Positions 39,578 to 40,494 of a stretch of DNA of 64,000 bases are shown in pieces (position 1 is the first letter of the stretch; every line of letters begins with the position of its first letter). The stretch lies in assembly GCF_054482595.1 (NCBI RefSeq), contig NZ_CM137008.1; one strand, given 5' to 3'. The notes under the pieces are model-generated. The model saw nothing but the letters and a program-made list of their open reading frames with translations. It ran no database searches and had not been told where the DNA came from. Both the position numbers and the translations under genes were made by a program.

Positions 39578-40494
39578 ATGGCTTGGCTTCCCCTTAACCC
39601 CATTCCACTCAAAGATCGCGTCTCCATGATCTTTCTGCAATATGGGCAGATCGATGTAATAGATGGCGCGTTTGTACTTATCGACAAGACAGGGATCCGC
39701 ACTCATATTCCTGTTGGCTCGGTTGCCTGCATCATGCTGGAACCTGGTACACGGGTTTCGCATGCAGCTGTTCGCTTGGCTGCGCAAGTTGGAACATTGT
39801 TGGTATGGGTGGGGGAAGCGGGCATTCGTGTTTATGCTTCTGGTCAGCCTGGTGGTGCGCGTTCAGATAAGCTGCTCTATCAGGCAAAACTTGCTCTGGA
39901 TGAAGATTTGCGTCTGAAGGTCGTACGTAAAATGTTTGAACTTCGGTTTGGAGAACCTGCGCCTGCCCGGCGCTCCGTAGAGCAACTCAGAGGTATAGAA
40001 GGCAGTCGCGTGCGGGCACCCACGCACTTCTGGCGAAGCAATACGGCGTGACATGGAATGGACGTCGCTACGATCCGAAAGACTGGGAAAAGGGCGATAC
40101 GGTCAACCAATGCATTAGCGCTGCAACTTCCTGTTTATACGGCGTAACTGAAGCAGCGATACTTGCAGCTGGTTATGCACCAGCTATTGGGTTTGTGCAT
40201 ACAGGAAAGCCTCTTTCCTTTGTTTACGATATTGCAGACATCATTAAATTTGACACTGTTGTACCGAAAGCTTTTGAGATAGCGCGTCGTAACCCTGGTG
40301 AGCCGGACCGGGAAGTCCGTTTGGCGTGCAGGGATATTTTTCGCAGTAGTAAAACATTAGCCAAATTGATTCCGCTTATAGAGGACGTGCTTGCTGCTGG
40401 AGAAATACAACCGCCGGCCCCACCTGGAGATGCACAGCCTGTTGCCATTCCGCTTCCTGTTTCACTGGGAGATGCAGGCCATCGGAGTAGCTGA
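39578..40494 (+). pseudogene. cas1: cas1 integrase gene interrupted by a frameshift
   Basis: ORF 39563..40051 carries Cas1 N-terminal half and stops at TGA 40049-40051; ORF 40048..40494 in another frame carries the C-terminal half (TWNGRRYDPKDWEKGD...); junction about 40012-40025. Confidence 0.8.

Follow-up and report, generated by a model that had tools for sequence, protein, structure and literature searches.

Two open reading frames in different frames take the place of a single cas1 gene in the type I-E cas operon considered here, which raises the question of whether the break is a genuine property of the genome and, if it is, whether a lineage that carries it can still add spacers to its CRISPR arrays. 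The window, by which we mean the whole 64,000-nucleotide stretch of DNA that was analysed, is a segment of the E. coli chromosome with the order barA-relA-mazEFG-pyrG-eno ... queE, CRISPR-2, ygc genes, cysJIH, cas3-casABCDE-cas1-cas2, CRISPR-1, iap, cysDNC ... rpoS ... mutS ... hypDE, and it is collinear with strain TUM18780, from which it differs at 3 of 64,000 positions. On the plus strand, a full-length cas3 (32131-34797) is followed by the Cascade genes casA-casB-cas7e-cas5e-cas6e (35212-39562, all full length), the cas1e pseudogene (39578-40494), an intact cas2e (40496-40780, scoring 142.9 bits against TIGR01873), the CRISPR-1 leader (40781-40885) and the CRISPR-1 array (40886-41768), which has 14 spacers and 15 repeats, the last of them degenerate. 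CRISPR-2, also on the plus strand (14884-15339), has 7 spacers, and the arrays are regular with a spacing of 61 nucleotides, as formed by type I-E repeats of 29 nucleotides and spacers of 32. The cas1e pseudogene thus sits in the orthologous position, between cas6e and cas2e and upstream of the leader and array, and at the DNA level it shares 98.6-98.8% identity with the cas1e of MG1655, DH1 and other strains derived from K-12. About 500 nucleotides past the end of CRISPR-2 and before ygcE is a lone degenerate repeat, GTTCCCTGCATCAGCGGGGATAAACCG (15845-15871), with three mismatches, which is probably the remnant of an array, and on the minus strand at 12414-13085 the TPM-domain gene within a LemA/TPM cluster is, according to the annotation of the collinear RefSeq record, an incomplete pseudogene missing its C-terminus.

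The cas1e lesion and the genomes that carry it

The original prediction described a cas1 split into two frames, the first closed by a TGA at 40049-40051 and the second running from 40048, and both open reading frames are present as described. The first (39563/39578-40051, plus strand) encodes 157 residues from the ATG at 39578, of which residues 1-147 are native Cas1 and the last ten, PTHFWRSNTA, are an out-of-frame tail that ends at the premature TGA. The second (40048-40494, plus strand) encodes 148 residues from a GTG at 40048 that overlaps the TGA as GTGA; this GTG is native Val158, and the product corresponds to native residues 158-305. Because the native frame is lost after residue 147 and resumes with Val158, residues 148-157 are found in neither reading frame.

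A single-nucleotide indel had been proposed for the interval 40012-40025, and alignment with intact alleles bears this out, placing a one-nucleotide deletion at 40017/40018 on the plus strand, where GCAACC has become GCACC at codon 147/148. With the intact 918-bp cas1e of AR_0061 as reference, the missing A is nucleotide 441. Four nucleotides downstream of it in the same alignment, at 40021, is a lineage-specific T>C change that would give Y149H if the frame were repaired. Among the 15 billion sequences searched there is no protein with the frame exactly restored and H149 in place, and the intact protein with Y149 (P0023) is present on 67 contigs; neither the deletion nor the T>C therefore occurs outside the carriers of the allele. 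Either the two changes arose together in one complex event, or the T>C followed inactivation.

The identical 917-bp cas1 sequence is found in 14 of 5,426 complete E. coli genomes, its intact relatives being 918 bp long. The hosts of the carriers are humans, chickens, one pig and one duck, and the countries named in the records are China, Japan and Switzerland. RefSeq PGAP annotates a 'frameshifted' pseudogene in every cas1 copy checked (Santai, XH990, THO-010, GF66.1 and TUM18780). Beyond complete genomes, the exact 157-residue product, out-of-frame tail included, is encoded on 392 contigs and the exact 148-residue product on 381 (NCBI, ENA and Logan). Carriers differ from the window by 1-2 nucleotides in the 10.3 kb compared at the cas locus and by 0-2 in 7 kb downstream, whereas non-carriers differ by more than 120 nucleotides in the same comparison, and the near-identity of the carriers therefore identifies the lesion as an inherited allele of one clone. 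Of the carriers, Santai alone could be linked to a published sequence type, ST1011 (PMC5039186). A full-text literature search returned no paper that describes the present allele; PMC12300496 was considered as a possible description of it and rejected, as that article mentions frameshifts only generically.

Consequences for Cas1 and the rest of the type I-E system

As a single polypeptide, neither product is recognized as Cas1e above the curated cut-off of TIGR03638 (NCBIfam cas1_ECOLI), which for the whole protein is 215.6 bits over a profile of length 269: the N-terminal fragment scores 182.1 bits over profile positions 3-143 and the C-terminal fragment 163.7 bits over positions 154-268, with positions 144-153 missing from both. 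The four catalytic residues are likewise no longer on one chain, E141 (codon 39998-40000, plus strand) being encoded by the first reading frame, and H208, D218 and D221 (40198-40200, 40228-40230 and 40237-40239, plus strand) by the second. According to PMC4046053, which cites the mutagenesis study, replacing any one of E141, H208, D218 or D221 by alanine abolishes the nuclease activity of E. coli Cas1. The crystallized C-terminal-domain construct 3NKE starts at residue 92, and the break consequently falls about 55 residues inside the catalytic domain and not between domains. The comparator is E. coli K-12 Cas1 (YgbT; PDB 3NKD, 4P6I and 5DS4), with which residues 1-147 of the window protein align with only A2/T2 and I83/V83 differing, and with which the window shares both the coding of all four catalytic residues and the order cas6e-cas1-cas2-leader-CRISPR next to iap; it departs from K-12 in that the native frame ends with A147, residues 148-157 are not encoded, the active site is distributed over two reading frames and the Cas1e score is not reached.

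The sequence of events that we propose begins with the loss of one A at codon 147/148 in the ancestor of the clone, as a germ-line frameshift. Translation from the native ATG would then produce residues 1-147, ten wrong residues and a stop, and would leave residues 158-305 in another frame and without a ribosome-binding site of their own. The Cas1 active site needs its four catalytic residues brought together in a single folded helical domain, and because the break lies inside this catalytic helical domain, no active Cas1-Cas2 integrase should be possible; we infer the loss of integrase activity from the sequence together with the published mutagenesis. Both naive and primed spacer acquisition would be lost as a result. 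The original prediction held the adaptation module to be probably inactive, and loss of acquisition does appear to be the best-supported reading, on the basis of the divided catalytic residues and of the frozen arrays of all carriers that are described below. We regard it as highly probable that the locus as a whole is explained by a genuine, inherited cas1e frameshift, with adaptation lost and with no change in the arrays other than deletions and duplications mediated by the repeats.

The remaining cas genes are full length, as had been predicted, with products of 888 (cas3), 502 (casA), 160 (casB), 363 (cas7), 224 (cas5), 199 (cas6e) and 94 (cas2) residues, and RefSeq flags none of them, so that seven of the eight genes of the type I-E system are intact and cas1 is a pseudogene. 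The effector reading frames being complete, it is plausible that interference is still intact; Cascade, Cas3, Cas2 and both arrays remain, and existing spacers could guide interference if the operon is expressed. Three loci with an intact cas1 of the P0023 allele (L026, L028 and L029, here called the intact sisters) have the same sequence as the window in casB, cas5, cas6e, cas2 and the leader, and the cas3-casA intergenic region of the window is equal to that of L026 and L028 and has one difference from that of L029, at 35194. Compared with these sisters and with outgroups, the effector genes contain three derived nonsynonymous changes and no synonymous one: Cse1 E79G (casA, 35447) in all carriers, Cas3 A352T (33184), which lies shortly after helicase motif Ia and is shared by the window and Santai, and Cas7 N153D (37664) in the window only. 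That all three are nonsynonymous is compatible with relaxed constraint on the system, though three changes are far too few to establish it.

Some CRISPR-Cas systems, for example type IV and the transposon-associated types I-F3 and V-K, are naturally without an adaptation module, cas1-cas2 being absent by design in systems with specialized roles. The window resembles these in having effector genes and arrays with no working Cas1, but it differs from them in that its cas1 became a pseudogene recently, its cas2 is undamaged and a working cas1 is found in nearly identical sisters.

CRISPR arrays of carriers and of relatives with intact cas1

Eight of the 14 carriers have a CRISPR-1 identical to the window array, and the rearrangements in the others (seen at loci L001, L004, L005 and L006) are losses and duplications of existing spacers. 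Spacers 2-3 are lacking in three carriers, as read directly for Santai and as deduced, from match statistics that are identical, for SM107 and AHM21C2872I; XH990 has spacers 4-5 and 11-13 duplicated, THO-010 has spacers 4-5 duplicated and spacer 9 lost, and GF66.1 has spacer 4 duplicated. In all 14 carriers spacer 1 adjoins the leader, and the block formed by the leader and spacers 1-4 is absent from the complete genomes of all non-carriers. Exactly the 14 carriers share a CRISPR-2 that is 100% identical, the next best genome reaching 89.9%.

The intact sisters provide the comparison. Their block from cas3 to the leader (32131-40885, 8.75 kb) differs from the window, apart from the lesion, at three (L028), four (L026) or five (L029) positions, and divergence from the window amounts to 1-5% in the flanking cysIH and iap; because the block is near-identical while the flanks are 1-5% apart, the cas-CRISPR segment is a recombination block that resides in different chromosomal backgrounds. 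In L026, CRISPR-1 has eight leader-proximal spacers of its own followed by spacers 5, 6 and 12-14 of the window array, in L028 it has two of its own followed by 5-10 and 14, and in L029 it has two of its own followed by 3, 4, one other spacer and 6-14. New leader-end spacers thus number none in the 14 carriers and from two to eight in each intact sister, a contrast that rests on three sister arrays.

The carrier branch would, on this evidence, have gained spacers 2 and 1 after its split from the L029 branch, and cas1 would have broken after that, the arrays since then having been altered only through recombination between repeats. A cas allele that was acquiring spacers until recently is the most economical reading of the arrays, which are suggestive on this point; part of the leader-end differences could be explained by array-level recombination instead of acquisition. 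Because the type I-E arrays of E. coli change slowly in general, the frozen arrays of 14 genomes are themselves only suggestive. The spacer TATTTATCATAAACAGCAATACCGTATTGCAA, which is second from the leader in L026, is internal in L029, in the place where carriers have spacer 5, and its placement in the two arrays hints at recombination between arrays.

The frameshifted clone and the intact sisters, sharing a near-identical cas-CRISPR block, amount to a small natural experiment, which suggests that an E. coli type I-E allele acquired spacers in the wild until its cas1 broke and which bears on the long-running question of whether E. coli type I-E is ever active in nature. In practical terms, array typing, or any assumption of a working type I-E system, must reckon with a lineage that is probably unable to add spacers.

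Selection, rescue and sequencing error as alternatives

That the frameshift was selected is unlikely, though it is the least improbable of the alternatives. Under this explanation loss of Cas1 would, for example, have put an end to primed adaptation or to self-targeting and so allowed a multidrug-resistant clone to keep its conjugative plasmids, and several carriers are indeed described as multiresistant or as mcr-1 strains. A candidate target also exists, in that about 3,600 F-like conjugative plasmids in PLSDB have in traD a match to the trailer-end spacer of CRISPR-2, GGTACAAAAGAGGCCCCATTCTGGCAGGGCTC (15279-15310). The PAM is ATG, the mismatches fall at 14, 18 and 30 (pHK23a type) or at 3, 14, 18 and 30 (pPSUO2 type), and an imperfect match of this kind, with three to four mismatches, is one that drives Cas1-dependent priming. 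Cascade leaves every sixth position unpaired, and the pHK23a-type protospacer may be a near-perfect target. Targets with seed mismatches normally drive Cas1-dependent priming, and the pPSUO2-type protospacer, which has a seed mismatch, would be a priming-type target against which the lineage could no longer prime; that the loss of priming against traD mattered to the lineage is speculation. For phages, the search for protospacers of the spacers gave only repeat-driven or chance matches. Against selection, the one carrier plasmid examined, pMTY18780-1 of TUM18780, is IncHI2 and not F-type, and the decay of cas genes elsewhere in E. coli is in keeping with the neutral erosion of a system that is silent for the most part. 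The fuller version, in which positive selection ended priming by the imperfect anti-traD spacer or by self-targets, resistance plasmids were kept and Cascade and Cas3 were retained for another role, is very unlikely; if it were true, immunity would be frozen while conjugative resistance plasmids were taken up and kept.

The evidence on decay comes from 60 genomes, sampled evenly from the 1,220 that have the same cas1e type; three of the 60 carried a lesion. One of these is the window allele. GF66.2 (L017) has an independent one-nucleotide deletion in cas1e, at codon 78, together with an internal stop in cas6e, and in ET650 (L018) an IS1-adjacent deletion has removed everything from cas3 through most of cas1. 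As the lesions of GF66.2 and ET650 are independent, decay of type I-E recurs in E. coli. They resemble the window in that the type I-E locus suffered loss of function and the arrays were kept, but they are separate events of other kinds, whereas in the window lineage only cas1 is hit and the allele belongs to a successful clone, in which it has spread to about 390 contigs. The cas1 of the window is a real and ordinary pseudogene, already flagged by RefSeq, and an instance of ordinary cas gene erosion; a pseudogenized cas1 in E. coli will be no surprise to a specialist.

A two-piece Cas1 would require the N-terminal fragment to associate with a C-terminal product of reinitiation at the GTGA, the pair recovering integrase activity. 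Strong similarity to Cas1e is kept in both fragments, and the overlap of stop and GTG (40048-40051) has a geometry known from translational coupling, by which termination-reinitiation could in principle express the C-terminal piece. A scan for a Shine-Dalgarno sequence before the GTG at 40048 found none, however, and the cut lies inside the catalytic helical domain and not at a domain boundary, with the ten native residues 148-157 missing and ten foreign ones added. In addition, spacer gain is seen in none of the carriers and is present in the intact sisters, and both Y149H and the nonsynonymous-only drift fit relaxed constraint, so that a functional two-piece enzyme is highly improbable.

We give hardly any credence to recoding or phase variation, by which a -1 ribosomal frameshift, transcriptional slippage or a reversible repeat would yield some full-length Cas1. 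Between about 39937 and 40049 the C-terminal frame has no stop, leaving a zone of roughly 110 nucleotides in which a -1 shift could join the frames, but an in-frame X XXY YYZ heptamer, of the kind that marks a programmed -1 frameshift, is found nowhere in the N-terminal reading frame from 39578 to 40049. The only homopolymers of five or more in the cas1 pseudogene are GGGGG at 39811 and TTTTT at 40337, which are far from the lesion and outside the overlap zone. The deletion itself is in an AA dinucleotide, outside any simple-sequence tract, and no genuine ON allele with H149, as expected of a phase-variable gene, was found; a true revertant is not on record, the sole 'repaired' protein (P0020) coming from runs with systematic +A errors.

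The original prediction had considered a sequencing or assembly error equally possible, and this is refuted: that cas1 is in truth unbroken and its A was lost only in sequencing or assembly has a negligible probability, for although single-base indels are the commonest type of assembly error and one public run series makes systematic false +A insertions in the same operon, the identical 917 bp are present in 14 independent complete genomes from different laboratories, the truncated proteins recur on the 392 and 381 contigs with Logan re-assemblies of raw reads among them, the lesion sits in an AA dinucleotide and not in a homopolymer, and in every carrier it is linked to the private T>C and to private spacers.

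The run series in question is the source of an apparent compensating insertion. A +A at 39953 gives the 305-residue P0020, and also 180-residue proteins on a K-12-like allele, and was rejected as a read error. All of the +A proteins trace to the one series SRR337683xx-337694xx (loci L007-L014, Logan SRR33768374-SRR33769487), and the contigs of this series have further +A insertions in GAAC contexts (37041 and 37851) and fragmented cse2, cas7 and cas5. Because the same contigs carry these other GAAC insertions and broken genes, the +A at 39953 is a systematic read error. The series SRR33768374-SRR33769487 thus yields false frameshifts in cse2, cas7, cas5 and cas1, and the spurious P0020 has entered protein databases.
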